Origin: an uncultured Nitrososphaeraceae archaeon
GTDB lineage: Archaea; Thermoproteota; Nitrososphaeria; Nitrososphaerales; Nitrososphaeraceae
Assembly: GCA_963837175.1 (NCBI GenBank)
Contig: CAWIMJ010000027.1
Location: 1-28,407, forward strand
Direction: 5' to 3'
Length of the DNA stretch: 28,407 nucleotides
The notes under the pieces are model-generated. The model was not told the DNA's origin. It saw nothing but the letters and a program-made list of their open reading frames with translations, and made no database searches. Position 1 is the stretch's first letter, and every line of letters begins with the position of its first letter. Positions 10,808-28,053 of the stretch are shown one piece after another. Made by a program: the position numbers and the translations under genes.

Positions 10808-11455
10808 TTAACTTTTTTGGTTTCTTGTTATTTCTTTATTATAGATCGGTGTCAATTTTTGTAGCTCATTTAGATATATGATGTATCTTTTATTAAACCC
10901 ATTACCATCTGCATCAAAGTATACATCTATATTATTTGGCTCTGTAATTCGTGCAAGCAATGTGAGAAGTTGTCTCACATCATTATCATACTTTAATGAG
11001 CTTTCATTCACAATTACAGATAGCAATTGAGTGAGTCTTCCATGCAATCCAAGAAGATAAAGAGAATGTGTAAGATATAATTTGGCATCCAAGATATCTC
11101 CTTCTAATGCTGTCAGACAAAAATCAAACAGAAGATTCCTTAAAGGCAAACCAGATCGACCTATATTTTGTATTTGTATGTGCTGTTGTTTACCTATTAT
11201 CTCTTCTACCGATGCATCTCTTAAGAATTTGTTGAAAAGTTTTACAATGTCTTTTAAGCTAACTGTATTTCTTCCTACTTCAATTATACCTAATCTTGTT
11301 GCAACACCATCTATGTCTTGGAACTGAAACTGTGAATCCATCGTTGTACCTTTTGAAAGTTTACTATTGCTTAAAATACTACTATCTATAGGTATATATT
11401 CTATTAACCTCTCTATCTCTTCAAAAATTGCTAATGTCATAAAACCTTCCCCCAT
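10808..11455 (-). CDS. Hypothetical protein
   Basis: 215-aa ORF with globular composition and no recognised motif. The true start may be 11495 or 11486 if the G5 run near 11450 has an extra base. Confidence 0.7.
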   Translation of the reverse strand: MGEGFMTLAIFEEIERLIEYIPIDSSILSNSKLSKGTTMDSQFQFQDIDGVATRLGIIEVGRNTVSLKDIVKLFNKFLRDASVEEIIGKQQHIQIQNIGRSGLPLRNLLFDFCLTALEGDILDAKLYLTHSLYLLGLHGRLTQLLSVIVNESSLKYDNDVRQLLTLLARITEPNNIDVYFDADGNGFNKRYIIYLNELQKLTPIYNKEITRNQKS

Positions 11456-11706
11456 TTATTTTAGTTTTATATTCATTTATTCTCATATTTCTCATTCTGA
11501 ATCTCGTGCCTTGAATTATCTATCTGTAGAGAATATGTTATGGATATATTAGCACTTTCAAATGTGCAGATTTAGAAGTTTGTATGCAAATATTTCCACA
11601 AACCAGAGAATATGTTATTCTGACACCAAATTGCACAAGATATAATATTTTTCAATATTATCTCGTATTGCAATAGTATATAATTATCTTCTTAGGTAGA
11701 TTGCCA

Positions 11707-11732
11707 GTGTGCGTGTGTGTGTGTGTGCGTGT
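11707..11732. repeat. (GT/GC)13 alternating purine-pyrimidine tract
   Basis: gtgtgcgtgtgtgtgtgtgtgcgtgt read directly. Confidence 0.9.
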
Positions 11733-11738
11733 CATCGA

Positions 11739-12150
11739 ATGAAAGAAAGAAAGAGAGGGGATAATAATAATAGTGTTTAATCTTCTATGATTATTACAAC
11801 AACAGGCAGCAGCCAAAGGCAAAATAAATAATAAAACTAGAGAGACAGGAAGAGGAGGCAATGAAGAGGAAAATATAGAAAAGTTTGGCCTTGAACTTTC
11901 ACAAAAAATAGTTAATGCAACTGAAGGAGGTCTGTTTGTATTCATACATAATGCAATGATATCCGATATCAAATTCAGTATGTTAAGGAGCATTATAGGA
12001 AGGTGAAAGTAGTTAAGTTAACACAGCCAATAAGAGCGACAAAAAACCTATAAGAAGATCATTGTATTCTATTACCCCAAAAGTTAAGAGATTGTTAAAC
12101 TGTTGGATGGCATTCGTTTCTGCATTATAGAATATCCTTCGTCCTCAGAT
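11739..12150 (+). pseudogene. Decayed hypothetical gene
   Basis: Protein-like frame LLQQQAAAKGKINNKTRETGRGGNEEENIEKFGLELSQKIVNATEGGLFVFIHNAMISD is bounded by stops and frameshifts; boundaries are approximate. Confidence 0.4.
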
Positions 12151-12608
12151 ACCTGTCATATTATCATTATTTGATGATCAGATAGCAATCATATCGTAAT
12201 CTAATGTGAGTGGGATGGCTTTCATAGAAGTCGTATATGCATACACGACGTTTGAATTTTAATCACTCATCATTATCAAATAAATAATGCAAAATTTTAT
12301 CGTGCGAAATTGTAAATTATATGATACTATGAGAGCAAAAATTGCCAAAATCAATTACGAACATGTCATACATTATTATCTACGGAGGAATTTATTAACG
12401 CATTCATCAAATGAATGAAAGATAGACCTGCTGATAATGTGTCATATGTGTGTGCAAATATTATATTATTTACGAATATATGATTTAAAAGATTGAAATA
12501 TCACTTGCTGTGACACAAACAGAATCATTGGAATTATCTCCAAACATTGGGTATCTTCAGATAACATTGACGCAAAGCTGAATTTTGCAATTCCCCCAAT
12601 TCCTTAGA

Positions 12609-14162
12609 TTAGCTTGCTGTTGTTGTTGCCACCTTCGATGCAGTTGAAGGATCCAACAGGAGCTTATCTGCTAAATGTCTGTTGCTGTTAAAGTCAAACA
12701 TATTTGTAAGCAAACCAGCTTTTTCATCAAAGGATTGGTTACCAATACGTCCTAGATTCCAGTTATCTTCTATGAATCGAAGGATTGATGTCTGGTCAGT
12801 TATTTGGTGGTCTATAAAGTTGACTTTTGCATATGGAGATATTACCAATAATGGTAGACGCGGTCCATACCCACAGCGGTCTTGATATGCGTCTGCTGGA
12901 GCATGTCCACAGAGCTCGGTAGAGCCAAGAAGAGCATCATATTTAGGGTCATTTGATTGGCTAACTATTGGAGGCATGACATGGTCATACCAACCATCTG
13001 AATCATCATAGGCTATTATTACTGCAGTACTATTCCATACTGGTAGGCCTTGCAACTTGTTGGTGGTATTAACAAGGAATGCCTGTTCATCTATTGGATT
13101 GGAATATCCTGCATGTCCATCTTGATACCTAGAAGCCTTCAAGAAGCTTACAGATGGCATGTTTCCTGCCCGCTGCGTTCCAGAAATCACTCAAGTCATA
13201 TTGATGATTTGCTTGGTCAGTCTTACCAATCATTGCAATAGAAGTGGGAGGTAGATGATGAGGATTTGCTGTTGATTTGTAATACTGAAAAGGTTCGTGG
13301 TGGGCGCTGTAATCTTTTTGAATCTTGTTAGCGATGTTCTTGTGAGTGGAATCACAAATGGCTTTGCCATCAGCTGTCTTACTAGTTGGTTTGAATCCTC
13401 CTTGAAACCATCCCCAATCTATGTTTTTGGCATTTAGAAGATCACCAATATTCTTTCCTTGCATCATAACCTGTGCTTTTGAACAATCGTCAAACTTGGG
13501 ATATGGGTCTTCTATGATGGTTCCATTTATAACATTATCATCAGCAACATTGGGTGGGATTGCACCATGTGTTTGACCAGAAATTAAATTAATGGCACCT
13601 GGTGTTGATGGTCCAAATGTAGAGCTATATGAGTTGTCACTCATTGAAAAGTGCTGGGCATAATTCCATAGTGCTGTTACAGTATTGCCATCGTAATATC
13701 CCATAACCTGCTTTGGGTTACATCCAGGATCAGTTGAACCGGTAAATTCTACAAATTTATCTACCAGTCCTCCATGGTATGCCTTCTGTTCAGCCAAATA
13801 ATCATGATTCATATCACAAGTTACAGCTTCTGACCTGCCTAGTCTGAATGGGTTGACCGAGAAATTGCCGTTAGGGTTGTTGGTCAAAAGAGCTTTTGTT
13901 AATCCGTTAGCCGAAGGTGTGTTAGGATCAGCACTAAATTTAGGTTCTTGTTGTGAGTGGTTGGTTGCATTAGGATATGTACCAAAGTAGTGATCATAAG
14001 AGATATTTTCCTGAAAGATGACTACAAGATGCTTGATAGGTGTAGTTGTTGTAGTTGCTGAAGGCGCCAAAGAAGAGCTTCGGCATTTATCGCCCCACCT
14101 GTAACAAGAGACAATATTAATGCAAACGATATAGACGATGATAATACTAATATTGTTTTCAT
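12609..14162 (-). CDS. Secreted phosphoesterase (phospholipase C / AcpA acid phosphatase family); frameshifts at about 14078 and about 13170
   Basis: PIKHLVVIFQENISYDHYFGTYP, FGPSTPGAINL, SAHHEPFQYY, DGHAGYS, YDDSDGWYDHV and GYGPRLPLLVISPYAK motifs. The signal peptide MKTILVLSSSISFALILSLVTGGAINAEA starts at ATG 14162 in another frame. Confidence 0.9.
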
Positions 14163-14326
14163 TGAATCAGAATAGTTAGACTGACATTTCAGATAATAGT
14201 TACTACATGTAAATATATGAGACTGGGACATAATTGATTTTCTAAATTATACAATATTTATATAGATTAAGCATTTTTGTCATGTTTTTTTAGAAAGAAT
14301 TAACTATCTCCAGTATGTAGTGTCCG

Positions 14327-14680
14327 ATGAATTATACTAAACTTCAAAATCCAAAATACCAAACATGCATAGATGTCTGCAATAACTGTATGGAAGCCTG
14401 CGAAGCTTGTTGTACAGCTTGTCTTTCTGATGCAAATAATGTTAGCATGATGACAAGATGCATAATGATGTGTCGTGATTGTGCTGATATGTGTATGATG
14501 ACATCTACTATGATGTGTAGAGGCAGTGAATATGTAAGACAGATGTGCAATATGTGTGCTGATATGTGTGATGCTTGTGCTATGGAATGTGAAAAATATG
14601 GTAACAAGATGGAACAATGTAAGCAATGTGCTGATATGTGTCGTGCATGCGCTCAAGAATGTAGGAATATGATGCGTTAA
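14327..14680 (+). CDS. Four-helix bundle copper-binding protein (DUF326 / Csp3-YhjQ-like), copy 1
   Basis: Repeated CxxxC/CxxC spacing, 22 Cys and 19 Met in 117 aa, no signal peptide. Confidence 0.9.
   Translation: MNYTKLQNPKYQTCIDVCNNCMEACEACCTACLSDANNVSMMTRCIMMCRDCADMCMMTSTMMCRGSEYVRQMCNMCADMCDACAMECEKYGNKMEQCKQCADMCRACAQECRNMMR
14335..14672 (+). repeat. 338-bp direct repeat, copy 1 (copy 2 at 18873-19210)
   Basis: Endpoints read by eye; antisense ORF translations in the track are identical for both copies. Confidence 0.92.
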
Positions 14681-14842
14681 AAGCCAAAAAAATTAATTAA
14701 AATACACACATATACACACAAAATAAAAGAATTATCAACTTCTTTATTCCCAATTTATTATAACTTTTTGTTGTTGATGAAGGTCAGATTATGCATGTCA
14801 TCTAGGTTTACAGAAAAAAGAATTAATTGATGCTTCATATAT

Positions 14843-14877
14843 ATGCAAATTGTGCATTTTTCATGGTAAATTAGCAT
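14843..14877. promoter_or_regulatory. Tandem 15-bp dyad boxes upstream of Zn-ribbon gene 1
   Basis: ATGCAAATTGTGCAT (14843) and ATGGTAAATTAGCAT (14863); TTATAT at 14890. Confidence 0.75.
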
Positions 14878-14928
14878 ATTTAGATTTAATTATATTGCCA
14901 ATGTATCATATATACAATACTCATAGAA

Positions 14929-15189
14929 ATGTCTCAATTCCTTAGCTCAAAAGCACTGCCACCACAACAAAGAAACAAACTGTTACCATATGTCAGATAC
15001 AAAAAGGAAGAACAGCAACAAGGTAATGAAAGGATATTAGTTATGTACAAATATTTCCTATCCTGCAATTCCTGTGCATGGAACATATCGTATTGTGAAT
15101 CTTCCGGATTGCTAGATGTTTCTGAGGAATTTGTAAACTGTCCTATCTGCAAAACTGGTAGAGTAGCATCATCCAAACACCTGCTGTAG
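14929..15189 (+). CDS. Small Zn-ribbon-like protein (CxxC...CxxC)
   Basis: FLSCNSCAWNISY...CPICKTGRV; paralogous to 19585..19926. Confidence 0.75.
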   Translation: MSQFLSSKALPPQQRNKLLPYVRYKKEEQQQGNERILVMYKYFLSCNSCAWNISYCESSGLLDVSEEFVNCPICKTGRVASSKHLL

Positions 15190-15825
15190 GTAATATTCCT
15201 TGATGTTGTTCATTGGATCTTTATATTATACTAATGCAGAAAATAGGATAGTTGCATTGATTTGGGGCCGAAACTAGTAATCTTGGCTAAACACTAGCTC
15301 TGTTATAGTAGTGATATATTCTCTATAACATCTATCAGAAAAAGCGCAAGCTATAATAAAATGATAAGATTACCATCAAATACAGAATGATATGGTAATT
15401 TTTGATGTGATAATTTGATGGTGACAAATCATTTCCTCTAATTATATAATACAAATAAAATTATTGGATATATTATTATTTTAGAGGCAATGATGCTGAT
15501 ACATAGTGACAAGTTCGGCAATAACATCTATTGGAATTATCGGGACGATATTATAGAAAAGAAGAACCAGAGGAGTTTTTACTTGAAGAAAAATGTAGAA
15601 AAGATGTATTGCAGAGCGTTACAATAAAAGAATATTGATAATAAATCTGATTTTATATTATTTGTTTTTATTCTGTAGTGACTTATCATTCATCACCAAT
15701 AGTATCATTAAGCAGCAAGCATTAGTAGTCGCTGATCACTTGGTAGAAGTATAAAACAGATGATCACATAATTCAGATACCCAATAAAACCTGACTTGTA
15801 CTCATAATTATATACTCAAATATTC

Positions 15826-16029
15826 ATGAAATATATGCAAATTTATAAGACTAAGAAATTCATTTTTGTTATAGCCTTAACTATTGTTGTTATTGTTGCT
15901 CTTACATTCACCTTCATATCTATAGATAACCTATTTGTCACTGCACAAACAAATGACCTGCTCCTCTCTTATTCCTCCAATCAAATCATCTGTGCTGCAG
16001 TAATTATCTATATTCCCAAACCCGTTTAG
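15826..16029 (+). pseudogene. Probable truncated secreted protein (signal peptide plus short tail)
   Basis: KTKKFIFVIALTIVVIVALTFTF...VTAQ signal-like N-terminus followed by an early stop. Confidence 0.4.
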
Positions 16030-16385
16030 CCAAAGTGATACATACCGAATAGAAGATTCAATAAATTATCATAATAGTAAAGGTGATATTGCTGATTGAT
16101 TTAATAAGAGCAGTATTAGTTTCAATGTCATATTACTATATTATTCATCATCAACAATTAGTATTCTTTTCATTAATTGCTGCTCCAAAAATTACTTGCC
16201 GATTAATTATTTATTATTGCTTCTGAAATGCTAATTTCAAAGTTTACATCCACCTATTATCACTAACTTGAGTAAATTAATTCAAAGATTAGAAGATTAC
16301 ACCTATTTTAGATGGAAATAACAAAACAACAAAAAGGTATTGATAATAGGACATATTAGGCTGGCAACATAACTAAATCCGAAGT

Positions 16386-16514
16386 ATGCAAAATGGATGT
16401 GATATATGCATTATTGACATGATTTGAAAATGAGCCGATATGTAGTGTTGAATATACAATATCTATTGATACTGAATACAGGTAACAAATACCTATAACC
16501 TTAGTATTTTGCAT
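16386..16514. promoter_or_regulatory. Two pairs of dyad boxes upstream of the secreted protein
   Basis: ATGCAAAATGGATGT (16386), ATGCATTATTGACAT (16406), AGGTAACAAATACCT (16480), CTTAGTATTTTGCAT (16500); ATATAT at 16527. Confidence 0.6.
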
Positions 16515-16558
16515 CTTTAAAAGCGGATATATGTAGAACATTACAAAATAATAAGATA

Positions 16559-16897
16559 ATGTCATATACAAAACATTACCTGACAATTGCAGCATTGATG
16601 ATGTTGCTATTGGCTGCAGCCATCGTAACTAATCCTATAAATGTTGCAATTGCACAGCAACCAACTACAACAACAACAAATCAATCTGACATAAATGTAG
16701 ACGAGAAAATAGATGAGTTGAAGGCAAAGTTTCCAGAATTAAATTCACCTCAAGGAAATGAAGTGAAGGATTTAATTCAAAAAGTACTGAGTTTAGACAA
16801 AGAACAAGCCCTCAAGGTGTTAGCGGCTTTCCACATTCTGAGAAATCTGCAGGAATACAAAGAGATTTCGTCTGGAGGTACTAATAGCACTAGTTGA
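16559..16897 (+). CDS. Small secreted hypothetical protein
   Basis: Signal peptide ending AIA-QQ, Thr-rich linker, helical-looking mature part. Confidence 0.8.
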   Translation: MSYTKHYLTIAALMMLLLAAAIVTNPINVAIAQQPTTTTTNQSDINVDEKIDELKAKFPELNSPQGNEVKDLIQKVLSLDKEQALKVLAAFHILRNLQEYKEISSGGTNSTS

Positions 16898-17001
16898 TTT
16901 TCATAAGTACCACACAGATCATTGAAATGAACTTTCCTATCCTATTTTTTGTGATTACAAGTAATGTTAATTCAGAATAGATGTTAAAATATTTCATTTT
17001 T

Positions 17002-17310
17002 CTAAAAGATTATAATTGACAAATTCCATTCTCTTCTGTCTATTTTATCATCAGATGCAGCGGCTAAAATATTATTATTAGTAGTAACTCTATCTTTGAA
17101 TTTAAATTGAGACTTTGGAGAATTGATTCAAACATACTATTGCGTATTGTCCTACCTCTATTTTTTCCCTTTGGTTTTGTGGATTCTTTAGAATTTTTTT
17201 CGATATTGTCATCATATCTATCTATCTATACCAATTAGCATAGGTTTTCTAATTGATTTTTGAAATAGTTCTTCATATTCATGTTGAAATGTTGGTTCTG
17301 AAATACTCAT
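17002..17310 (-). pseudogene. Hypothetical gene interrupted at a tetranucleotide (ATAG) repeat
   Basis: MSISEPTFQHEYEELFQKSIRKPMLIGIDR then stop. Removing one 4-bp unit near 17216-17229 restores YDDNIEKNSKESTKPKGKNRGRTIRNSMFESILQSLNLKF... Confidence 0.5.
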
Positions 17311-17520
17311 TTATTACTTTTGTAGATTCTGTGAATGATGATTGCATCCTTTATACAAATATTCAAAAAAAAAACGATTCACAAAGTTTAGTCTTGTTAT
17401 GTCAAATTTATTGTTTATTACCATTCCTACTAATATTTGTGGATAATAGCGGAAAGCCTGAGAGACAATGCAGACTTTTACTTAACCAACATTTTAAGAG
17501 CCATTCTGTGTGTTTTTCAC

Positions 17521-17805
17521 TTATCTTTCCTTTATTTGATATTTTGGAAGTATGTTGATATCTATCACAGTATAATGTGTATGTATCAAGGGATTATCTA
17601 ATATTATTTTTAAATATGCTATTTCGGATTCTATATACTTTTTATCAATTTCATTATTAATGTTGTAATCTGTGGCGTATTTTAAAAGCCTTTCACACGC
17701 ATTCAATTCTTCAAATATGATTTCTCTTTTATCAAGACATACGTTATGATATGAATCAACCATTCTGTAAGTTATTTTCTTAGTACTACCGGTTGTATTG
17801 CACAT
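17521..17805 (-). CDS. Small helical hypothetical protein
   Basis: 94-aa ORF with amphipathic helices (CLDKREIIFEELNACERLLKY...IESEIAYLKIILD). Confidence 0.65.
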   Translation of the reverse strand: MCNTTGSTKKITYRMVDSYHNVCLDKREIIFEELNACERLLKYATDYNINNEIDKKYIESEIAYLKIILDNPLIHTHYTVIDINILPKYQIKER

Positions 17806-18088
17806 TACATATATCTATATGATATGCTTTTTCCAGATTTGCGGACTTATATCTGAGTTAGATGTGTTTCACATGCTGTACAAGAAACTGGGGCAATTCT
17901 TAAAGTCTTAAAATTATATAGCAAAATCATATAATTTTATTTGAGGAGACTATTTTCATTTGCCATTACATTTCGTGTAATTGTTATAATGTTTTTTTAG
18001 CTGTTGTAATATAATCATTATATAAGTATAATTGTGTGCGTGTTTTATGTATATTACTTCTATCACATACGCATCTTTGAAATGATAT

Positions 18089-18185
18089 GTGCAAATATCG
18101 AATGCAAAATTGCTAATTTGCATATTTGATTATATAACTAATTTTGATTTATGCTAAGGTTGCATTTTATTTGTTAAAATTACAC
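18089..18185. promoter_or_regulatory. Two pairs of dyad boxes
   Basis: GTGCAAATATCGAAT (18089), ATTGCTAATTTGCAT (18109), ATGCTAAGGTTGCAT (18151), TTGTTAAAATTACAC (18171); TTATAT at 18198 and ATG at 18229. Confidence 0.7.
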
Positions 18186-18228
18186 ATTTAAAATGAGTTA
18201 TATCAAACCGTTTGTATTATATACAGTA

Positions 18229-18501
18229 ATGTCTGTTACCAAAATGTCGTCATCATCATCAATAAGAAAGATGAATGATAATGATGATATTACTGCAAAT
18301 CAAAGACCACCAAAGATCTTTATTCTTGTAGAAGGTAACAGAAAGGAGGCTGAAATATGAGGTAAATAAATAACAAATAGACCTAGACTATGTTTTGTTC
18401 AAAGGTCAAAGGGGTAAAGACAAAATTAGATAGAGGATGAACGAAGGAGGTCAACTGTTCCTATAGTAGAGTTATCTGTCATGTCAGATAATAATAGTAT
18501 A
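18229..18501 (+). pseudogene. Short or decayed ORF behind an intact dyad promoter
   Basis: MSVTKMSSSSSIRKMNDNDDITANQRPPKIFILVEGNRKEAEI* (to 18360). The same frame continues protein-like through further stops (ITNRPRLCFVQRSKG*...IEDERRRSTVPIVELSVMSDIIV*). Confidence 0.5.
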
Positions 18502-18731
18502 GCAGTGTTATTCATATTATCTTCTCCGGAAATTGTACCGGTTGTCATATAATTCACCTATCTCTCTCTTCCTCTTCCCTCCTTCTCTACTACTTCTCTT
18601 TTGTCAACTAAATTAGTATATTATTCAAAAATATCTATTATCAAGCAACAAAACCAATGATCCTCTACAATAATGAGGATCTTTTATTTTTCATTATTCT
18701 CCACATCATTTCACTTTAACATAAAATGTAT

Positions 18732-18819
18732 ATGCAATTTTTGCATGTTATATGTGTATTTAGATCACAATATTGATATTTTATATGCTAATATTGCATA
18801 TTTTTGATTAATTTTGCAT
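18732..18819. promoter_or_regulatory. Two pairs of dyad boxes upstream of copper-binding protein copy 2
   Basis: ATGCAATTTTTGCAT (18732), ATGTGTATTTAGATC (18752), ATGCTAATATTGCAT (18785), TGATTAATTTTGCAT (18805); TTTATATA at 18823. Confidence 0.75.
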
Positions 18820-18852
18820 ACTTTTATATACTATACTTTGGATGGTAATGCA

Positions 18853-19218
18853 ATGAGTAATAAAACAACTACTACTAAACTTCAAAATCCAAAATACCAA
18901 ACATGCATAGATGTCTGCAATAACTGTATGGAAGCCTGCGAAGCTTGTTGTACAGCTTGTCTTTCTGATGCAAATAATGTTAGCATGATGACAAGATGCA
19001 TAATGATGTGTCGTGATTGTGCTGATATGTGTATGATGACATCTACTATGATGTGTAGAGGCAGTGAATATGTAAGACAGATGTGCAATATGTGTGCTGA
19101 TATGTGTGATGCTTGTGCTATGGAATGTGAAAAATATGGTAACAAGATGGAACAATGTAAGCAATGTGCTGATATGTGTCGTGCATGCGCTCAAGAATGT
19201 AGGAATATGACACGCTAA
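18853..19218 (+). CDS. Four-helix bundle copper-binding protein (DUF326 / Csp3-YhjQ-like), copy 2
   Basis: Identical to copy 1 except at the termini. ATG 18853 (MSNKTTTTKLQ) is preferred over the track's TTG at 18814. Confidence 0.9.
   Translation: MSNKTTTTKLQNPKYQTCIDVCNNCMEACEACCTACLSDANNVSMMTRCIMMCRDCADMCMMTSTMMCRGSEYVRQMCNMCADMCDACAMECEKYGNKMEQCKQCADMCRACAQECRNMTR
18873..19210 (+). repeat. 338-bp direct repeat, copy 2
   Basis: Matches 14335-14672. Confidence 0.92.
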
Positions 19219-19505
19219 TCCTTTTCTTTTTAATTTGTGTTATGCTAAGATCCGATTAAATAATGTAGATAAACTCCAGATATTGTGTTTTTTTGATCTA
19301 TCAATCCCAACGTCTTGATCCATCAAAAAATCATATTTGAAAGCAATCGATTATTAGTATATCTACATCCCATCGCATTGGACTGGTTTCATCTTGCTTC
19401 TTTTAGAATATTTCTGATGGATATTTAATTACAAATCACTTAATAACATGTTTTAAAGAATAGTTCAGGTTATGAATATCCTAATTATAGTTTATTTATC
19501 ATTTA

Positions 19506-19540
19506 CTGCAAAAAAGGCATGTAATATGTTTACATTGCAT
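19506..19540. promoter_or_regulatory. Tandem dyad boxes upstream of Zn-ribbon gene 2
   Basis: CTGCAAAAAAGGCAT (19506) and ATGTTTACATTGCAT (19526); TTATAT at 19553. Confidence 0.75.
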
Positions 19541-19584
19541 ATTTGAATCCACTTATATCCTGGCAGCATATATACATATGATTA

Positions 19585-19926
19585 ATGTCTGTCATAGAAG
19601 CACTACCACCATCAGTAGAAGACAAAGAACAAATAAGAAAAACGATAAGGACTGTAGAAGAACAGAATGAAAGAAGAAGGAGTGATGCTACAACAAGACT
19701 AAACGTTCAAAATGTTATAACACAAATACAATTCTTATTATGTCAGTCTTGTTTTTGGTGTGCATCTTATATTGGTTTATCAAGCAACGTAAAGACAGTC
19801 GACTTAATTAAATGTCTAATTTGCAAAAATGGTAAAATAGAATCATTACCAATTGCAAATAATGAACGTTACAAATTTGATCACAATCAGAATTATGGAG
19901 TGATGCTACAATTCCTCAAAAGATAA
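19585..19926 (+). CDS. Small Zn-ribbon-like protein (CxxC...CxxC)
   Basis: FLLCQSCFWCASY...CLICKNGKIESLPI. Confidence 0.8.
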   Translation: MSVIEALPPSVEDKEQIRKTIRTVEEQNERRRSDATTRLNVQNVITQIQFLLCQSCFWCASYIGLSSNVKTVDLIKCLICKNGKIESLPIANNERYKFDHNQNYGVMLQFLKR

Positions 19927-20279
19927 AGATAAAAGATAAAGAGAGTAGATGATGATTAATAATATTAGTTGTATCAAAGACAAAGGAGTCTGATCAAACA
20001 AATTTAAAGATATATTTTATTTTATTTTTCTATAGTATTAGCAACTATTTTTCCATATTTTGACCAAGAGCCGCCATAATTCTTTATGTGTGTGTTTCAA
20101 ATAAATATTTTAGAATAAACTAGGTACGTGAAGACTTTGATTTATTCTGCAGTATGCGATGACTTCATTGCTATGAGTTGTTGGTCTAGATTGATCTTCC
20201 ATCTCCTCTTTGGTTTAATGCGCCCATCAAAGATGATGGCTTGTCCTCAAATTATGCTTTTTCTGCTCTTGAATATGTC

Positions 20280-20820
20280 ATCCAATATGAGAATATTATG
20301 TCGCATATTCCGGTGAAGTAAAGATTTCTCCGGTAAATTCTTTTTGGCTTCTAACATCGACCAATAATCTTTGTTGCTAAGGATTTCTTTACCTATTCGA
20401 GAAAGACCCATCTGATATTATTATTGGTTCTGCGGCCTTGAAATTCCTTTGGAATAAGTTGGAAGGTCTTTGATAATTGGCCAAACTTCTTCCAGCCATT
20501 TCTTTCTTCCTTCGTTCTTGTCAATCTTTAATTCTTATAGATATAATACTTGAATACCCAGAATGTAATGCTCCAAACCAATTGTTGAAATCTCTAGACT
20601 ATTAACATTGCACCATTGCTGGCATCTGAACTCCAATAATTCCTCACATATTTATCTACTCAGCACAATCATGTTAAGCAGTTCATTAATTTCTTTTTAC
20701 TACTCAAATAAAACAGCTTCTGGATCATTACCTCTTACCTTATAATCTTTTATGTGATTCTCTGCCTACCCTATTAATCTACCAAACTTTGCATAGTCAG
20801 ATGTAACCTTTCTGCTTGAT
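20280..20820 (-). pseudogene. Heavily decayed gene of unknown family
   Basis: Protein-like fragments (SRKVTSDYAKFGRLIG*AENHIKDYKVRG; KKWLEEVWPIIKDLPTYSKGIS; LSRIGKEILSNKDYWSML) broken by many stops; boundaries are approximate. Confidence 0.35.
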
Positions 20821-21065
20821 TATGCTTAAACTCAGACATATTGATATGTATATCGGATTTACAATATAAGCTAAGTCAAAAGATGCAAATAAGGGAAAAC
20901 CATGTAATTTCTTGTTTGGTCATTCTAAAATTGATTTACGCAGCTAATAAGTGAACATAAATAAATGGTCTGGGATGGTAAACAGAGTTGCTCTAAACAC
21001 TGAATTAGTATATTCATGTTTTTCTATGCTGCATCCTCTATTATGTTCCCAATCGTCATTAATTG

Positions 21066-22191
21066 TTAAAGAACACTATCAATACCTGTTTGTTCTTGTC
21101 CTCCTCCACCAATTGTAGGTAATCCTTTTTCGGATAATACTTCGTCTAATAGTTTCAAATCATATATTCCTGATAAATCAGGTCGTGTTTTTCCTAAAAA
21201 TCCAATATCAAATGCGCTGTTAGCTGACTGAAAGAGTGATAATTTAATAGGGTCATATGTTAATTCTAATCTTGCTAAAGATTCTCTTAACTGATCCTCA
21301 GGAATTGCCTGACCGGTAAGTTTTTTGAGCTCGACATTGAATGCTTTTATTGCTTCTTCTTTATGGCTGTTGATCCATTCTGTTTCATCTACATGTGCTG
21401 CCAACAATTTCTTTATCACATCTGGATTGTTTTGAAGATAATCTGTCCTAGCAACTATGTTTGATGTTACAAACTGTCCGTTTGGTGGCCAAAGATCTCT
21501 TTCATCTAAAAATAGTCTCGCATTTGCTTCTTTTATTAACCGTGCACCCCAAGGCTCTGGTACCCATGCACCATCAATCTCTTTCTTTAACATCAGAGTC
21601 AGTATATCAGCAGGTTTTGCAGGTACTACTTCTACATTTCCTCCATTCTCTTTTGTTTTGTATCCATTATTTAGTAAGTATTTTCTAAGAGCTACATCCT
21701 GAGTATTACCAAGCTGTGGAGAAGCAAATTTTTTATTTGCAAAATCTTTGGTTGATTGTATTCCTGAATCATTTCTAACTACGAAAACTGCTCCTCCACT
21801 TGATGCACCAGAAATTATTCTAAGATCTTTTCCTTGTGAAACAACATATGCATTGATTGCAGGATTGGGACCAACATATGTTACGTCAACTTGCTTTGCG
21901 AATAATGCCTCCATTGCTGATGGACCTGCGTTGAAAACAAATGTCTTGACCTCAACATTGTCGCCTAAATCTTTCTGAAATGTACCATTCCCCAAACCTA
22001 TTACTGCCTGTGCGTGATTGATATTTGGAAAATAGCCAATCTTCAAAGTTTTCTTTACTACACTGCCTTTTTCTCCACTAATACTAGAGTTATTAGTTTG
22101 CGAAAATGCTGGTGCAGTAGTAGGTATAACAATTGCTGCCTACAAGAATAATTGCGGCAGCAGTTATAGCAGATATTGTTTTTATATGCAT
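21066..22191 (-). CDS. ssuA: Aliphatic sulfonate/nitrate-type ABC transporter substrate-binding protein, copy 1; frameshift at about 22140
   Basis: IGYFPNINHAQA, FNAGPSAMEAL, YVGPNPAIN, ASPQLGNTQDVALR and DGAWVPEPW motifs. The signal MHIKTISAITAAAIILV-AAIVIPTTAPAFSQ is restored by removing one G. Confidence 0.88.
21336..22040 (-). repeat. 705-bp inverted repeat, left arm (right arm 26689-27393); second 81-bp identical block 21160-21240 / 27489-27569
   Basis: Endpoints read by eye; three antisense ORF translations are identical between the two arms. Confidence 0.92.
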
Positions 22192-22236
22192 ATGACGATA
22201 ATAATTTAATATCAGTGTATATGACTGCTTTCAAAT

Positions 22237-22302
22237 ATGCAAACCCTGAACAATATGCGCAAAAAACTATCATAAATAATATATATTTAGCACGCTTTGC
22301 TA
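22237..22302. promoter_or_regulatory. Dyad boxes in the divergent ssuA/comA-HTH intergenic region
   Basis: ATGCAAACCCTGAAC (22237, 46 bp from the ssuA ATG), GCGCAAAAAACTATC (22257), and palindromic TAGCACGCTTTGCTA (22288-22302, 44 bp from the comA TTG). Confidence 0.5.
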
Positions 22303-22345
22303 GTATCGCAAGTTCAATATATGTCATTTTAACACATATTATCAA

Positions 22346-23333
22346 TTGCTTGACGACCTAGCCATAAATAGAATAGATAAAAAAAAACCTCGAAAAGAAG
22401 GTTTAACCTTTATAGTAGATAAGATGCAAGGGCTAGATAGAGAAAATCTCGAAATATTAGCACCGTTGATAGACGTGGTAAAGATTTATGGTGCGTATCC
22501 ATTATTAATGTCTGAATCTCAGCTAGAGAGGAGAATAAAATTTTATCATGATTTTAATATTTTGGTATCGACTGGAAGTACTATTACAGAATACGCTATT
22601 ACGGAAAGCACTCTTGAGAAATTTGTTAGAGAAGCTGCTAAAGTTGGATTTGATATAATAGAAATTGGCGAAAATAATATTGATCTAAATATAGAACAAA
22701 AGAAAAAGATTACTGATACTATATTATCTATAAATCTTGATTCTCATTGGAAAATAGGCAAAAAGGATCCTCGTCATCAGATTGGAATAGATAAAACACT
22801 GTCAAAAGTTGAAGAAGCACTAACCATAGGGTACTGACAAGGTAATACTTGAAGCTAATGAAGGAATCAATGTCGGTATTTATGATGAAAAAGGATTAAT
22901 AAAATGGAATTTTGTAGCAGCGCTTACTTCAAAATATCCACCAAATAGATTTATTTTTGAAGCACCTCTGGAGACTCAGCAATCTGCTTTAATAGCAGAA
23001 TTTGGTCAGCGGGTGAATTTAGCTGAGGTTCGTCATGATATTGTTGCATCTGTGGAATCCCAGCGAAGAGGATTTTTATCTAAAGCTTCCTTTGGTGTAT
23101 CGATCCTTCACAAGGAACCAGAAGGTGGACCTGCTTCAAAATTCATTTATTATATAATAAAGACAAAACATCCTATAGAACAAGCAGAGTTGATGCGGCT
23201 AACTCGTCTGCCTAGACGAACTGTTCAAAGTGCTGTAGACGAACTTAAAGAACAAGGATTGATAGCAGAAAAAAGCAGTCTCGAAGATGCTAGGAGGAGA
23301 ATTTATTATCCTATTCAATCAGACTGGATTTAA
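22346..23333 (+). CDS. comA: Phosphosulfolactate synthase (ComA)-like TIM barrel fused to a C-terminal winged HTH; frameshift at 22828-22830
   Basis: KPRKEGLT..DK, IDVVK, GFDIIEI, GKK, VILEA, FIFEAP, FGQRVNLA and ESQRRG motifs. The C-terminus ASKFIYYII...EQAELMRLTRLPRRTVQSAVDELKEQGLI...EDARRRIY is MarR-like. Removing one G joins ORFs 22346..22837 and 23013..23333. Confidence 0.88.
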
Positions 23334-23435
23334 TTGCATAAATATATGACACCACAATAGATACGTGTAATGCCATGAAGTATAGGTATTAGGTTTTAGA
23401 GTACTAGCTTATTAGAGACATACTCATAAAATAAT

Positions 23436-23702
23436 ATGATGTCAGATTCAGGATGTAAACATCTTAAATTAATTCAAGAACACGTAAAGCCTAGTGCAGA
23501 TGGTTGTGAGGATTGTCTTAAAATTGGTGATTCTTGGGTTCATTTGCGTCTTTGTCTTATTTGTGGCCATGTAGGATGTTGTGACTCGTCAAAGAATAAA
23601 CATGCGACTAAACATTTCCATTCAACAAAACACCCGATTGTCCAATCTTTTGAACCTAATGAAAATTGGAGATGGTGTTTTGTGGATCAGACATTTCTTT
23701 AA
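23436..23702 (+). CDS. UBP-type zinc finger (zf-UBP) protein
   Basis: CKHL...GCEDCL..GDSWVHLRLCLICGHVGCCDSSKNKHATKHF..TKHP..QSFEPNENWRWCFVD. Confidence 0.92.
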   Translation: MMSDSGCKHLKLIQEHVKPSADGCEDCLKIGDSWVHLRLCLICGHVGCCDSSKNKHATKHFHSTKHPIVQSFEPNENWRWCFVDQTFL

Positions 23703-25058
23703 CACACACTGAACGTTGTAGATGTCCTGAATAAATATCCAGAATTCAAGATTTGGAATTTAGGTCTTGGCGTCATAGCTTTTGCTACTTTTTTAACTAC
23801 TTGTTAATTCATTCATGCATAGCACAAAAAGTTCCCAAACGTGGACTACCATAACTTTTCTTTGTATTTATTATCATGCAAGATAAAATCATACTCACCG
23901 TCACTATTAGCCGGTCTCCTACCGAGAAAATCATTATCATCACCACATGCAAGAGCCGACCATCTGGTGTAGGAATGGAGGAAACAAATGCAGACCCTAT
24001 CCATAGATATACAAACAAAGATTCTCAATAAGTTGGATGAAAGAATACATTGACTTACCCAGACTATGGTTGAGCGACCAGAACTAATTAATTAAAGTAA
24101 TAAGCAATATTCCAGCAAACTATTCTTCACCAGATATATCATTTTCTTATCATATCCTATACACATTTGCACATGTTTTCCATATGCGTCAAAGAGGGGT
24201 TGTAGGTATTAATGAATTGAATGGATGGTTACGGCGGATTAAAAGCCGTCTTTAAATAAGGCATGATAGCGAAATTTGGAAAACTATAGATGCAGAGAAA
24301 TGATTTGATACTGCCTTTGAGGAATTCATTAATAGGGAATTAGCACCTGTGGCTACTAAAAAATACTCAAACCCATAGTGACAGATACTATTTTACAAGA
24401 TTTTATTAATCGTATTCATTGATATTTATTCAGCTGAAGTTGAACCTACTTCTTGATTGTTCGATAAAGTTTTTTTAAATTCTTGATAAGACTTGGAATC
24501 TCTTTCATCTACTTATGCAATTTTCAGGAATGTGTCTTCGTAATATCTGACTATAGTAGGTTAGATGTGTTCTATCATCTTCGTATCACTAATCACTTTT
24601 TCATTGACTATAAATGAAAGCCAGTTCACACTATTAAATGTGCGAGAATACCATTGACTCCTAGCATAGTCATATTGAGATCCTAAAGGTAATTTAGCGA
24701 GCTCGCGATCCAAATCTCTAGATCATTGAAAATATTATTTGACAATGTAATCTGATCTAGTCTTTTCGTACGCCGAAATGTTACGATAGTATAAAATAAT
24801 GCTATTGCGTATATTCCAGCGGTAATAATCTGAAAGTATTCAGAAGGTATTACCATGTGTGGATTTAGAGAATAGCATGATTTTAGATTTAGGTTTTTTA
24901 ATTGACTACGTCTTTATCTGTAGCGGAAGTTCAGTATCATATGAATCAAACAGTCTCCAGAAATACCTTTACTAGGATCGTCGGATCGGTGCGCACATTT
25001 AGATTGGGTTGAGTTATTCTTGGATGATTTCAAAGATAGTGTTTTCTTACTACTGCTA

Positions 25059-26137
25059 TTATCTTTCGCTAAAGAACGCTGCGAGCTGCTCAATGACAAA
25101 ATCTGGCTGCTCTTCTGGAATCCAATGTCCTGAAAGAGGAACCGTGACTCCCTTTACATTTGTAGCTAATGATTGTAACGAGCTTAACGCAAAGTTTCCA
25201 GGAAGATCACCACCTAATGCTGGATAAATATCACCACCTAATGCTAATACAGGCATTGTTATCTTAGCCTTAGCTGATTCTTTATTTTGCTCTGCATCTA
25301 TTGGGAAAGCTCTAAAATGTTCAAATGCTGCACGCATTCCACCAGGAGCTGAAACATGACTTGCAAATACATCTATATCTTCTTCTGTAATTGCAGATGG
25401 ATTATAAGCCAATCCTTTGAAGAACCATGATATATATTCCCGCTCCTTACCTTCTACAAGAAATTCTGGTAAGTTAGGCACTTGATGAAAAGCAAACCAC
25501 CAAGGTCCATTCTCACCAAATTCTGGAGGTAAAAATCCTGGGAATGGAAAATCCATGATCACTAATTTATTTACATTGTCAGGATGAGCTGCGAGCATAT
25601 GAATAAGCTGTCTGTGAGCCTACGTCATGTGCTACCAACAAAATTTGATTAAAACCTAATTGAGATGTCAATTGATAGATATCTTCTGCAGTAGTCTTAC
25701 CGTCGTAACCTGTAACTGGCTTTGAAGAATCACCAAATCCTCGAAGATCAGGTACGATTACAGTGTAATTCTTGGCCAATTCTGGCATAATAAGTCTCCA
25801 TTCATACCATGATTGTGGAAATCCATGTAATAGTACTAAAGGATCTCCTTGACCGCCTATTACATAATGCAATTGAATTCCATTAACAGAAGCCATATGA
25901 TGGGAAAAAGTCATGTTATCGATGTCAAAAGATGCACCTAGCAAATTAGGCTGCTGTTGTTTTAGAACAAAAGATGTTTGGTTAACTTGTGATTGTTGCT
26001 GCTGTTGTTGTGCCATTGTAATCTGAGACTGATTTGAACCAATTTCAATTAGAGATATGCTAGATGCAATAACAATGAAAACGACGATTACTGTAGAGCG
26101 TGATGAATGTACCTATGGAGTTTGTCCTACTACTCAT
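25059..26137 (-). CDS. Alpha/beta hydrolase (epoxide hydrolase / haloacetate dehalogenase-like), probably secreted; frameshifts at about 26113 and about 25593
   Basis: HGFP oxyanion motif, PDLRGFGDS, nucleophile elbow AHDVG, WWFAFH and catalytic GHWIPEEQP. A hydrophobic signal-like segment lies upstream of 26016 with ATG at 26137. Confidence 0.88.
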
Positions 26138-26462
26138 CGAAGATTGCTTAATGATATTATATTTAAGTATATCACAACTTGGAGGGTTGTTGGTTAATTC
26201 AGTTTAACACTATCCCTGCTATCTGATTGATCTGCATTTTGTTTCCTCCTGGATAGGTTCTGATTTGGGATTTCAGTAAACTGAAAGTCCATAAATTTCA
26301 TCTATTTTCTATACGATCAGCAATATTATCAAGTTAAAATCTTGACTTCAAAACAACCACTGATAGTTTACACTAAATGACCAAATGGGTTCTTTACAAT
26401 GCTGATAACCTTATTCTGGGTATTTGTAGCCTGACAATAAATACATAAGTATGAGGCTATAT

Positions 26463-26497
26463 ATGAGAATATTGCGTATAATATTTCTAATCTGCAT
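26463..26497. promoter_or_regulatory. Tandem dyad boxes upstream of ssuA copy 2
   Basis: ATGAGAATATTGCGT (26463) and ATTTCTAATCTGCAT (26483); TAATAT at 26510 and ATG at 26541. Confidence 0.6.
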
Positions 26498-26540
26498 ATT
26501 TGTAAGCGGTAATATGTATGGCCTACTTTTTTTATGATAG

Positions 26541-27624: not shown

Positions 27625-27678
27625 AAATACATAGCATACATGCGTTTTTGATATATATCCAGAAGAATGGTTTGCCCT

Positions 27679-28053
27679 TTATCTGTTTATCATGATATTT
27701 ACCATTTTCAATAGATCTTCATTTCCTATAGGTTTTTGAATAAAGCAATTTTCACCTACTAAATCATATATTTCTTTTCTAAATGGTTCATAGTACTTTT
27801 CGCTAGCAGTGATAAAACATAACTTAACCTTTTTATCTATCTTTCTCATTTCTTGATAAAATTCAAGACCATCCATTTCTGGCATTTTAATATCTACAAG
27901 TATTAAGTCGTACAAATCAGGTTTAAAATTTTCTAATGCCAATAGAGGATCAGTAAATGAATGCACTATATACTCACTATTTTGTTCCAATATGATCTTA
28001 AACAATGAGCTAATATCTGGCTCATCATCAACAATTAAGATCCTTTTCTTCAT
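27679..28053 (-). CDS. Stand-alone response regulator receiver (CheY-like) protein
   Basis: ILIVDDE, DLILVDIKMPEMDG, ITA and FIQKP motifs; no output domain. Confidence 0.93.
   Translation of the reverse strand: MKKRILIVDDEPDISSLFKIILEQNSEYIVHSFTDPLLALENFKPDLYDLILVDIKMPEMDGLEFYQEMRKIDKKVKLCFITASEKYYEPFRKEIYDLVGENCFIQKPIGNEDLLKMVNIMINR

Follow-up and report, generated by a model that had tools for sequence, protein, structure and literature searches.

A recurrent dyad in the intergenic DNA of the window

We analyzed a 28,407-nt stretch of DNA from an uncultured Nitrososphaeraceae archaeon (hereafter the window), which is an entire contig (C27; CAWIMJ010000027.1) of a 3.81-Mb assembly with 58 contigs and 34% GC (G000; GCA_963837175.1). 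The window carries two genes for SsuA-family binding proteins, two for Cys-rich DUF326 proteins, several for Zn-ribbon proteins, one for a secreted protein and, divergent from one of the ssuA genes, a gene that joins a ComA-type barrel to a MarR-type winged helix-turn-helix (comA-wHTH). An earlier note on this DNA had described an island-wide signature of paired ATGC-N7-GCAT boxes at a 20-bp period, held at a fixed distance from TATA-like hexamers and start codons, and had attributed it to one cooperative activator. We found that these boxes belong to a longer promoter module that recurs across the family, and that very probably serves as the signature of a functional regulon.

The window contains exactly four perfect ATGC-N7-GCAT dyads (14843, 18151, 18732 and 18785), which are the four previously listed and which all lie outside called open reading frames (ORFs). 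The expected number is 0.66, and none of 100 shuffles of the window gets to four. Across the genome, the perfect dyad occurs 95 times in 3,810,681 nt, which is the chance level, at 0.25 per 10 kb compared to 1.41 in the window; therefore, the enrichment is local. The sequence TTGCATATTT is found 56 times genome-wide versus 58 expected, and 4 of the 56 are in the window versus 0.42 expected, while the motif words have genome-wide observed-to-expected ratios of 0.82 to 1.02.

We performed a k-mer comparison, blind to the proposed motif, between the 8,049 nt of intergenic DNA within 11000-27000 and the rest of the genome's intergenic DNA, employing home-made gene calls (3,215 genes, 59% coding) solely to split coding from intergenic sequence. 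The top 6-mer is ATGCAA/TTGCAT (25 observed versus 7.5 expected; p = 3.4e-7 over 1,589 words) and the top 7-mer is ATGCAAA/TTTGCAT. An independent repeat search returned a 44-nt family with four copies, at 14839, 18085, 19502 and 26459, and inverted matches tie 16382-16420 and 22219-22262 to it. A genome-wide promoter profile from the base composition upstream of 1,894 crude ATG starts yielded nothing usable.

The claim of twelve dyad pairs exactly 20 bp apart survives in altered form. Scored as dyads over 16 letters, the twelve pairs have mismatch sums of 1, 2, 4, 4, 4, 4, 4, 4, 5, 6, 7 and 8, and only 14843/14863 and 19506/19526 are good dyad pairs. Most of the pairs fail as two full dyads, a description that we replaced with the longer module. 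Ten of the twelve fall inside such modules; the pair at 14249/14269 is unsupported by a profile built independently of the window, and the dyad at 18732 stands alone, as its partner at +20 is not a box. On the same strand, GCAT elements lie 20 bp apart four times versus 0.9 expected, which none of 200 shuffles equals and which is the highest count among distances 5-44. From the window alone, the period would lose its significance once the 40 distances examined were corrected for, and the spacing is convincing only because of the copies in other genomes.

Anatomy and spacing of the promoter module

When the promoters are lined up on the proximal GCAT, they share an ungapped unit of about 55-58 nt. 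Its distal element is a 15-bp dyad, ATGCA-N5-TGCAT (in the window ATGCAA-N3-TTGCAT), followed by 5 nt and by a proximal box that keeps mainly its right half (..TAAT.TTGCAT) and is a half-site; the two GCATs are 20 bp apart, or about two helical turns. Beyond the proximal box come ATTTG(A/T), a purine-rich stretch such as AAGCAG that resembles a transcription factor B (TFB) recognition element (BRE), and a TATA-like TTATAT or TAATAT (TWATAT) that starts 13 nt after the box. The start codon follows 23-34 nt past the module's end, and mostly 22-37 nt past it in other genomes, which is close enough to imply leaderless or very short-leader mRNAs. Two equal dyads are thus not what the promoters contain; they contain a distal dyad, a proximal half-site and an ATTTG/BRE-like/TATA block, though the fixed geometry upstream of TATA had been correctly recognized.

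The distances given in the earlier note are largely reproduced. TATA-like hexamers begin 13 nt past the proximal box at 14890, 16527, 18198, 19553, 26510 and, on the minus strand, 11551. The proximal box ends 44 nt before the start at 14327, 45 nt before 16559, 44 nt before 18229, 45 nt before 19585 and 52 nt before 14929, and it ends 46 and 45 nt before the ssuA ATG codons at 26543 (+) and 22192 (-). A 44-46-bp distance had also been assigned to comA-wHTH, but there the TTG start (22346) is 75 nt from the end of the listed pair, and only a different palindrome, TAGCA-N5-TGCTA (22288-22302), ends 44 nt before it. The units at 11564/84, 16386/406 and 22237/57 lie on the minus strand.

Other genomes supplied 71 unique full-length copies, among which the GCAT-to-GCAT spacing is 20 in 58 copies, 19 in 12 and 21 in one, and the gap from the proximal GCAT to the TATA is 12 nt in all 71, although this alignment was fitted to a model that disfavors insertions and deletions and would under-sample other spacings. 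The consensus across genera is tATGCaAAt.TTGCATaT..t.T.c..ta.aTTGCATATTTG.A....gTWATAT, and its most conserved part consists of the proximal TTGCAT, the ATTTG, the purine-rich stretch and the TATA. Eight window copies show the exact geometry, while two variants (18087 and 18782) have their TATA closer.

We searched for the module with two models (Table 1). R1, a covariance model that uses sequence only, was trained on the eight window copies and gives rough E-values; the independent profile was built from 59 unique copies from other genera, without window or same-genus sequence, and finds 10 units in the window. Relatives repeat several of the individual arrangements. Homologues of gene 10808 in two other genera have the module 95-104 nt upstream, like the window gene. 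In one genome (G021), a divergent pair equivalent to P9/P7 precedes a Zn-ribbon gene and an orthologue of the secreted-protein gene 16559-16897 (sec16559), with the module 25 nt before the latter's ATG. Units near-identical to P5 precede ssuA in three same-genus genomes, and a relative of the P1 unit persists in the same-genus genome G001. The G001 contig in question (C26, L041) also carries a two-domain rhodanese gene, flanked by the P1 relic on one side and by the 19585 orthologue on the other; no rhodanese occupies this place in the window.

Table 1. Module units, dyads and annotated genes of the window. Gene families are from a Pfam scan of 28 window ORFs.
Feature	Position (strand)	Gene or context	R1 E-value or Pfam evidence	Independent-profile unit (E-value)	Remarks
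P10	11544-11601 (-)	before gene 10808-11455 (-), function not known	1.9e-11	11546-11596 (-) (2e-5)	TATA ~11546-11551; ~96 nt to ATG, unusually long
P1	14840-14897 (+)	before Zn-ribbon gene 14929-15189	1.4e-10	14843-14895 (+) (0.0026)	perfect distal dyad 14843; proximal box 14863 with one mismatch; TATA 14890
P9	16366-16423 (-)	divergent from P7	2e-10	16372-16420 (-) (0.0017)	TATA degraded to TTATGT; no gene after it; probably an orphan copy
P7	16477-16534 (+)	before secreted-protein gene 16559-16897 (sec16559)	7.7e-11	16481-16532 (+) (0.0016)	weak distal box, good proximal half-site; TATA 16527
Overlapping pair, minus unit	18051-18100 (-)	no convincing gene after it	0.0012 (not in training)	18051-18100 (-) (0.001)	common box 18089
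Overlapping pair, plus unit	18087-18134 (+)		2.2e-5 (not in training)		common box 18089
P8	18148-18205 (+)	before short ORF 18229-18360	3.1e-10	18151-18203 (+) (8.6e-5)	perfect distal dyad 18151, degenerate proximal box; TATA 18198; ORF starts MSV, as does Zn-ribbon gene 19585
Lone perfect dyad ATGCAATTTTTGCAT	18732-18746	53 bp upstream of next dyad	partial model matches only
P3 variant	18782-18830 (+)	before DUF326 gene 18853-19218	2.3e-5 (not in training)	18785-18821 (+) (0.0097)	perfect dyad 18785, half-site 18805; TATA only ~5 nt past proximal box
P2	19503-19560 (+)	before Zn-ribbon gene 19585-19926	3.1e-12	19507-19558 (+)	one mismatch in each box; TATA 19553
P6	22217-22274 (-)	before ssuA 21066-22192 (-), spacer shared with comA-wHTH	1.7e-10	22219-22263 (-) (8.3e-6)
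comA side of spacer	22288-22335	before comA-wHTH			palindrome TAGCA-N5-TGCTA 22288-22302; degenerate box ATGTCATTTTAACAC 22321-22335 between TATA and TTG
P5	26460-26517 (+)	before ssuA 26543-27624 (+)	1.4e-13	26463-26515 (+) (1.6e-7)	TATA 26510; best-scoring copy
comA-wHTH	22346-23333 (+)	divergent from ssuA	ComA E 3.8e-35; MarR_2 E 1.5e-7		TTG start 22346; ComA domain ORF 22346-22837, then MarR-type HTH ORF 23013-23333
SsuA-family (NMT1_2) gene	21066-22046 (-)	Pfam ORF span	Pfam		inverted relative to the other copy
SsuA-family (NMT1_2) gene	26641-27624 (+)	Pfam ORF span	Pfam
Cys-rich DUF326 gene, first	start 14327		Pfam
Cys-rich DUF326 gene, second	18853-19218		Pfam
Split phosphoesterase	12609-14070		Pfam
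Split alpha/beta hydrolase	25059-26016		Pfam
zf-UBP protein	module region		Pfam
Receiver-domain ORF	module region		Pfam
ORFs without Pfam family	several, including 14929 and 19585	Zn-ribbon-like proteins at 14929 and 19585

Conservation of the module across genomes

Within the genome, the module is confined to few contigs. A profile of the window copies has matches at E < 0.001 only on the window and on contigs C26 and C48, which are 97-98.6% identical to parts of it. The independent profile has 16 matches at E < 0.01, of which 10 are in the window, three on C26 and three on C48, and the next best match has an E-value of 0.47. The confinement to these three contigs indicates that the module is not a general promoter element; occurrence before a large random fraction of genes, which the earlier note had named as grounds for abandoning the regulon, is not what the genome shows. 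A position weight matrix (PWM) matches elsewhere in the genome at 84 places, 48 of them intergenic, with no fixed distance to start codons.

Across genomes, the module extends far beyond the island in which it was noticed. R1 has matches at E <= 0.001 in 30 of 60 other Nitrososphaeraceae genomes, from 13 of 18 genera and with a best E-value of 1e-10, as compared with one of 100 genomes from other families of the class (36 of them from the AT-rich family f13), where the single match is at 5.7e-4. The 60 genomes include one unpublished genome (G055) in which the comA-wHTH fusion is counted as present and the best module, at E 0.0016, falls outside the 30. The island-wide signature is thus real in the window and is a local instance of a family-wide module. 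In other genera, the modules again cluster in islands, often as divergent pairs, with about 16 on one contig (G021:C54) and several each on G008:C158, G061:C154, G051:C339 and G019:C162. We also considered a chance origin and rejected it on the basis of the shuffles, the word enrichment, the outgroup control and the independent-profile search.

Phylogenetic footprinting, which had been suggested as a check, agrees with a conserved operator. The closest orthologue of gene 19585, in G001, encodes a protein that is 69% identical, and DNA identity is about 90% over the stretch that begins at the P2 distal box and extends into the gene. Upstream of that box the two sequences are unalignable, and the edge of the footprint is the distal box itself. 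The module is kept in orthologous and non-orthologous promoters alike while their flanks diverge, which is how a conserved, operator-like regulon motif would be expected to behave.

We also considered whether the module is a trait of the Zn-ribbon gene family, and rejected it. Diverged Zn-ribbon paralogues elsewhere in the genome have no boxes in their upstream 120 nt, and a window-trained PWM finds no upstream box at 19 Zn-ribbon loci in relatives, bar the closest orthologue in G001, where the box fell under the PWM threshold and is visible in the alignment. Consequently, the module does not simply travel with that family.

Genes downstream of the module

From 25 other genomes we collected 80 unique modules that are 45 nt or longer, and we checked the signatures of their downstream genes by Pfam on 34 representatives. 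An ATG-started ORF of at least 40 amino acids begins within 120 nt of 65 modules, and the other 15 have none. The commonest of the 65 are SsuA/NMT1_2 binding proteins (19, in 8 genera) and Zn-ribbon CxxCxW proteins (12, in 5 genera), followed by beta-carbonic anhydrases (4), two-domain rhodaneses (3), receiver domains (3), ABC ATPases (2), homologues of window gene 10808 (2) and one each of a sec16559 orthologue, a homologue of 17521 and a DUF326 protein. The remaining 17 are unclassified; one of them is an ABC permease by Pfam, and most others look like small, Ser-, Thr- and Asn-rich proteins with a signal peptide. DUF326 genes of other genera, like the window gene at 18853, mostly have both boxes and lack the canonical TATA block, and ComA-type genes are preceded by partial modules.

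The shared cis-regulatory signature that the earlier note saw before sulfonate-binding, Cys-rich, Zn-ribbon and secreted genes therefore recurs in other genera with the same kinds of gene, and this mix appears to be conserved regulon content, to which rhodanese, beta-carbonic anhydrase and transporter parts may be added. The gene at 26641-27624 scores 211.4 bits against NCBIfam TIGR01728 (SsuA_fam; cut-off 163.5); being above this curated cut-off, it is assigned to the SsuA family of aliphatic sulfonate-binding proteins, with a sulfonate as its putative ligand. The DUF326 protein reaches 40 bits against the Csp1 copper-storage model TIGR04401, under its cut-off of 100. The Zn-ribbon family, with the core FLLCxSCFWCASY...CPxC, has no match among Pfam or NCBIfam models; it has 1-16 matches per genome in 20 of 24 genomes of the Nitrososphaeraceae and occurs in one of 16 genomes of other families.

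Soil metatranscriptomes contain related sequence. In four RNA runs, from libraries that may also hold DNA, 5-7% of the words of 14200-22400 are present, and assembled contigs cover parts of the DUF326, sec16559 and ssuA genes, showing neither starts nor strand. Gaps in this coverage carry no weight, and we base no conclusion on these runs.

A divergently encoded candidate regulator

The comA-wHTH gene is intact on contigs C26 and C48, where it encodes 328 amino acids from the TTG. Its MarR-type domain (PF12802) scores 31.9 bits versus a cut-off of 27. A profile of 25 homologues, compared with the Protein Data Bank (PDB), matches ComA over residues 18-244 (E ~1e-40) and the SlyA/MarR chain 4MNU over residues 248-323 (E 5e-5). 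An AlphaFold2 model of the fusion has a mean predicted local distance difference test score (pLDDT) of 61.8, with residues 206-273 below 50; its C-terminus, the only part of the model that we employed, folds as helix-helix-helix-strand-strand at a pLDDT of 64-75. Together, the profile matches and the model predict a MarR-like wHTH in the fusion. The fold family of the barrel is clearly that of ComA. The fusion scores 163.7 bits against the ComA equivalog TIGR03849, under the cut-off of 280. In the PDB profile alignment, the ComA stretch EGRESG reads EANEG in the fusion. The fusion has more than 1,000 homologues, which are called 'phosphosulfolactate synthase' where the source names them.

The fusion and the module appear to have a common, family-restricted range. 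The fusion is found in 50 of the 60 other family genomes; the fused form is absent from the 100 outside-family genomes, one of which has a ComA-only match. Modules at E <= 0.001 are present in 29 of the 50 family genomes with the fusion versus one of the 10 without it (Fisher p = 0.012, among related genomes that are not independent).

The arrangement of the divergent spacer is conserved as well. At 13 loci from three genera (g1, g17 and g18), the fusion starts 70-85 nt from the distal end of the divergent ssuA module, and in genus g3 partial modules occur on both strands within ~130 nt. A ten-locus alignment of the spacer shows that its comA half is also conserved across three genera: a TATA-like CAATATATG lies ~25 nt before the start (22315-22323 in the window), with a box at or just past the TATA. 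This box is a perfect ATGCAAAACATGCAT in g18, where it overlaps the gene's own TATA; it has one mismatch in g17 and three in the window. Elsewhere the layout varies. Before the comA-wHTH start, genus g15 (L092, L095) has ATATGCGCAAAAYCTGCATATATCA, and genus g2 (L087, L088, L091) has two GCAT elements 31 nt apart; these layouts hint that operator and factor may have changed together.

The predicted gene is thus divergent to a putative target, with dyads in the spacer and in its own promoter, a layout that is typical of autoregulated factors with divergent targets and that suggests such a factor rather than proves it. Whether the ComA-wHTH fusion is the module-binding factor is, on this sequence evidence, an evenly balanced call. 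No other DNA-binding domain was found by Pfam among the 28 window ORFs, and the 10808-family and receiver-domain proteins have no DNA-binding domain in Pfam or NCBIfam scans, the only tests applied to them as regulators. The Lrp-type regulator to which the signature had been likened finds no counterpart at the locus, with no Lrp/AsnC match by Pfam among the same 28 ORFs, a scan that left out smaller ORFs and the rest of the genome; the candidate here is instead a ComA barrel with a MarR-type wHTH.

Duplications and repeats in the window

Long stretches of the window recur at 96-98.6% identity on three further contigs of the assembly: 1-7355 matches C35, 1-11662 and 18867-25742 match C26, and 19213-28407 match C48. 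This similarity reflects either large recent duplications or two co-assembled strains. comA-wHTH and both ssuA copies are frameshifted in the window and intact on C26/C48, with the ssuA frameshift zones near the 5′ ends (26543-26660 and 22040-22192); the frameshifted and split genes of the window are either homopolymer consensus errors or marks of a decaying copy. The two DUF326 genes share 338 nt that are 100% identical (14335-14672 versus 18873-19210). Contig C26 has a single DUF326 gene that fuses the first copy's upstream side to the second's downstream side and lacks 14673-18866, which is what would be produced by recombination between the two copies.

Three repeats of other kinds are present. 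A dispersed repeat of ~100-150 nt (15970-16125), which covers the 3′ end of a small ORF (15826-16029) and continues beyond it, has dozens of copies with 72-90% identity, both in this genome and in each of the six others of the genus. Within a doubtful ORF (11658-11993, minus strand), positions 11700-11740 hold an imperfect (GT)n/(GTGC) microsatellite, and a short tandem duplication lies at 9831-9963 (9831-9920 versus 9862-9963, 86%).

Proposed mechanism and alternative explanations

The explanation that accounts best for these observations is a Nitrososphaeraceae regulon that is read by ComA-wHTH and linked to sulfur, and as a whole we consider it somewhat probable. In the proposed mechanism, a dimeric, sequence-specific factor on the distal dyad would help a second dimer onto the weaker proximal site, and the resulting two-site array, at about -43 to -77, would touch the complex of TATA-binding protein (TBP) and TFB on the adjacent BRE/TATA. 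The factor would be ComA-wHTH, encoded divergently from ssuA, and the box at or just past its own TATA would mediate autorepression. Its ComA barrel would be the sensory part and would recognize a small sulfur-related molecule, for example sulfite or a sulfonate. With this regulon the cell would take up and process sulfur by means of SsuABC-type uptake, a rhodanese and a beta-carbonic-anhydrase-like enzyme, and the regulon would include Cys-rich DUF326, Zn-ribbon and small secreted proteins whose roles are not known.

ComA uses sulfite plus phosphoenolpyruvate. A sulfur-related signal is a guess from this chemistry together with the transporter and rhodanese content, and we regard it as about as probable as not. 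The full chain of events, in which a one-component regulator, made of a phosphosulfolactate-synthase-derived barrel that senses sulfite or a sulfonate and a MarR-type wHTH, binds ATGCA-N5-TGCAT, represses its own gene at the TATA and, from two sites held 13 nt upstream of the TATA, activates uptake, rhodanese, beta-carbonic-anhydrase-like, Cys-rich storage and Zn-ribbon genes, is put forward tentatively, as somewhat less probable than not.

Several observations weigh against this interpretation. The window's copy of comA-wHTH is disrupted: a G run at 22829 contains one G too many. Adjacency to a target is a heuristic for choosing a regulator, not proof, and many family-specific genes would have the distribution of the module too. 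The fusion is also present in genera with only weak R1 modules (g2 and g15), and further genera have ATATGC-N9-GCATAT or two GCAT elements directly before the fusion gene, with differing spacing. For a response to sulfur starvation, there is no desulfonating enzyme of the SsuD/TauD type among the module-downstream genes, Cys/Met-rich proteins are odd members, and roughly half of the members are functionally uncharacterized. Recent paralogy explains part of the repetition, as the promoters of 14929, 18229 and 19585 (P1, P8 and P2) align over ~95 nt up to the ATG in a window rich in duplicates (two DUF326, two ssuA and several Zn-ribbon genes). The predicted P7 promoter is spanned by two metatranscriptome contigs (16354-16579 and 16401-16756), although these may derive from DNA. 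Finally, the proximal box of P3, the promoter of the second DUF326 gene, lies ~5 nt from the TATA and looks more like a repressor position.

This last point bears on the strongest alternative, in which the factor is a repressor whose bound boxes occlude or distort the BRE/TATA until a ligand releases it; we judge this a real possibility, if somewhat short of probable. Most characterized MarR-family proteins are ligand-released repressors. The proximal box abuts the TATA at P3, the comA-wHTH box overlaps or follows its TATA, and the conserved ATTTG reaches to within 8 nt of the TATA. The canonical modules, however, place both boxes upstream of the BRE-like stretch, and all 71 full-length copies keep one box-to-TATA distance, which would be expected of contact with TBP/TFB and less of simple occlusion. 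Archaeal MarR-type and Lrp-type activators of this geometry exist in BldR and Ptr2. As in sites of the Ptr2 and Ss-LrpB type, the distal box is a dyad, perfect at 14843 and 18151 (as at the variant 18785), and a second site lies 20 bp away in 58 of 71 copies. If a specific factor binds, we lean toward activation at the canonical modules because the invariant 13-nt offset suits a factor that touches the basal machinery, while the boxes near the TATA of DUF326 and comA-wHTH promoters may be repressor positions, with one protein doing both.

Alternatively, the module could be a real operator pair that is read by another factor encoded elsewhere, with ComA-wHTH being merely a member of the regulon or an enzyme with a local role. 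The presence of ComA-wHTH in genera with weak or no R1 modules would fit such an arrangement, as would the modules before receiver-domain genes and before two conserved families of unknown function, which are possibly regulatory, and the apparent likeness of the dyad to boxes of the Lrp type. We nonetheless consider it unlikely, given that the scanned window ORFs hold no second DNA-binding domain, that the divergent arrangement is conserved with dyads on the fusion gene's promoter in several genera, and that module and fusion have the same family-restricted range.

A regulon that answers copper or another metal, with the Cys-rich DUF326 (Csp-like) and Zn-ribbon proteins at its core, would agree with the weak match of DUF326 to the Csp1 family and with the central role of copper in ammonia oxidizers (PMC7785015). 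The commonest members, however, are SsuA-family transporters, and rhodanese and a ComA-derived protein are found beside them. In Nitrososphaera viennensis under copper limitation, the log2 changes listed are -0.68 for comA, -0.72 and -0.91 for two 'sulfonate transporter' genes and -0.34 to +0.02 for rhodaneses (PMC7785015, supplementary file 3). These rows, matched by gene name and not by orthology, show no strong copper response, and a copper regulon appears quite unlikely.

A specialized core promoter is a further candidate, in which TTGCAT, ATTTG, the BRE-like stretch and the TATA are read as a whole by a dedicated TFB or TBP paralogue. Nitrososphaeraceae have many TFB paralogues, and the highest conservation runs from the proximal TTGCAT through the TATA with invariant spacing. 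Three features make this improbable: the distal element, 35-50 nt upstream of the TATA, is a true dyad and lies outside the reach that TFB has in other archaea; dyads occur alone (18732) and at or just past the comA-wHTH TATA; and the DUF326 promoters keep their boxes without the canonical TATA block.

A last reading is that genes were recently duplicated together with their promoters in a fast-evolving, pseudogene-rich island, and that the repetition records only this and reflects no shared regulation. We regard it as highly improbable: the paralogue pairs of the window, its 97-98.6% identity to three other contigs and the alignable P1, P2 and P8 promoters would suit such an origin, but the module precedes unrelated families, keeps its spacing in 13 of 18 genera where the flanks are unalignable, and is recovered by a profile from other genera and by the G001 footprint, both of which contradict it.

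The proposed regulon matters because specific gene regulation in ammonia-oxidizing archaea is barely known. These organisms are responsible for a key step in soil nitrogen cycling and do not lend themselves easily to manipulation. A defined promoter module across a family, a short list of targets and a named candidate regulator offer testable handles. Hundreds of 'phosphosulfolactate synthase' entries in the family may be regulators or bifunctional proteins, and the highly multiplied Zn-ribbon CxxCxW, DUF326 and small secreted families would be tied to one physiological response. The fixed box-TATA geometry could also provide a natural model for how archaeal activators and repressors talk to TBP/TFB.

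Comparison with known systems

A keyword search of the open-access literature, which does not cover subscription journals, returned no report of the module, of a sulfur regulon in ammonia-oxidizing archaea, of the fusion as a regulator or of the ComA residues, in agreement with the earlier note, which knew of no such regulon in these archaea. The regulon and the architecture of its regulator are apparently undescribed, while the kind of system, a transcription factor with dyad operators, is well known.

Comparable elements reported in a soil ammonia-oxidizing archaeon are the copper-limitation motifs of N. viennensis, TTCSGSMTTTGWACYANT and RATTTAAABATAGATTTAAATAATAAS (Reyes et al. 2020, PMC7785015). 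As given in that source, they are likewise upstream, shared between genes and kept in related species. Their sequences are unrelated to ATGCA-N5-TGCAT or TTGCATATTTG, and the genes listed behind them are other ones.

With respect to function, the module genes resemble the CysB/Cbl system of Escherichia coli, as SsuA-family transport genes would be placed under a dedicated regulator that senses a sulfur metabolite. CysB and Cbl activate ssuEADCB and tauABCD under sulfur starvation; they differ in being LysR-type, bacterial proteins with other sites, and the archaeal module genes include no SsuD/TauD-type enzyme. The barrel of the fusion resembles ComA, the (2R)-phospho-3-sulfolactate synthase (PDB 1QWG and others), over residues 18-244, and departs from it in falling under the equivalog cut-off and in having an extra C-terminal wHTH. 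The organisms that host the fusion are not known to make coenzyme M.

MarR-type one-component regulators with divergent, autoregulated operators are a second point of reference, and BldR of Sulfolobus is an archaeal activator of this type. The fusion shares with them its winged helix, a divergent target operon and dyads in the spacer and in its own promoter. Unlike them, its putative sensor is a ComA TIM barrel of ~245 residues instead of the MarR dimerization and ligand pocket, and its regulon would be large: one island alone has about ten of the promoters, and relatives have many others.

In geometry, the module resembles the operators of the Lrp-family proteins Ss-LrpB of Sulfolobus solfataricus and Ptr2 of Methanocaldococcus jannaschii, which bind cooperatively to 15-bp, AT-centered dyads spaced regularly upstream of the BRE/TATA and of which Ptr2 activates through recruitment of TBP. 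The module likewise has a 15-bp dyad with an AT-rich center and phased sites upstream of a predicted BRE/TATA, and its half-site core, TGCAA/TTGCA, resembles the Ss-LrpB box quoted in the earlier note. In contrast, its proximal site is a half-site, its box-to-TATA distance is invariant over dozens of promoters, and the candidate factor carries a MarR-type wHTH on an enzyme barrel, with no Lrp/AsnC match in the scanned window ORFs.

Finally, the Thermococcales glycolytic motif of TrmB/TrmBL1 and the SurR regulon of Pyrococcus are archaeal regulons defined by lineage-restricted palindromes. The module resembles them in having a palindrome that is restricted to a lineage and fixed with respect to the BRE/TATA, a coherent gene set and a candidate regulator in or near that set. 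It differs from them in motif, regulator family, lineage and genes, and in joining two sites at 20 bp within a module that is conserved up to the TATA.

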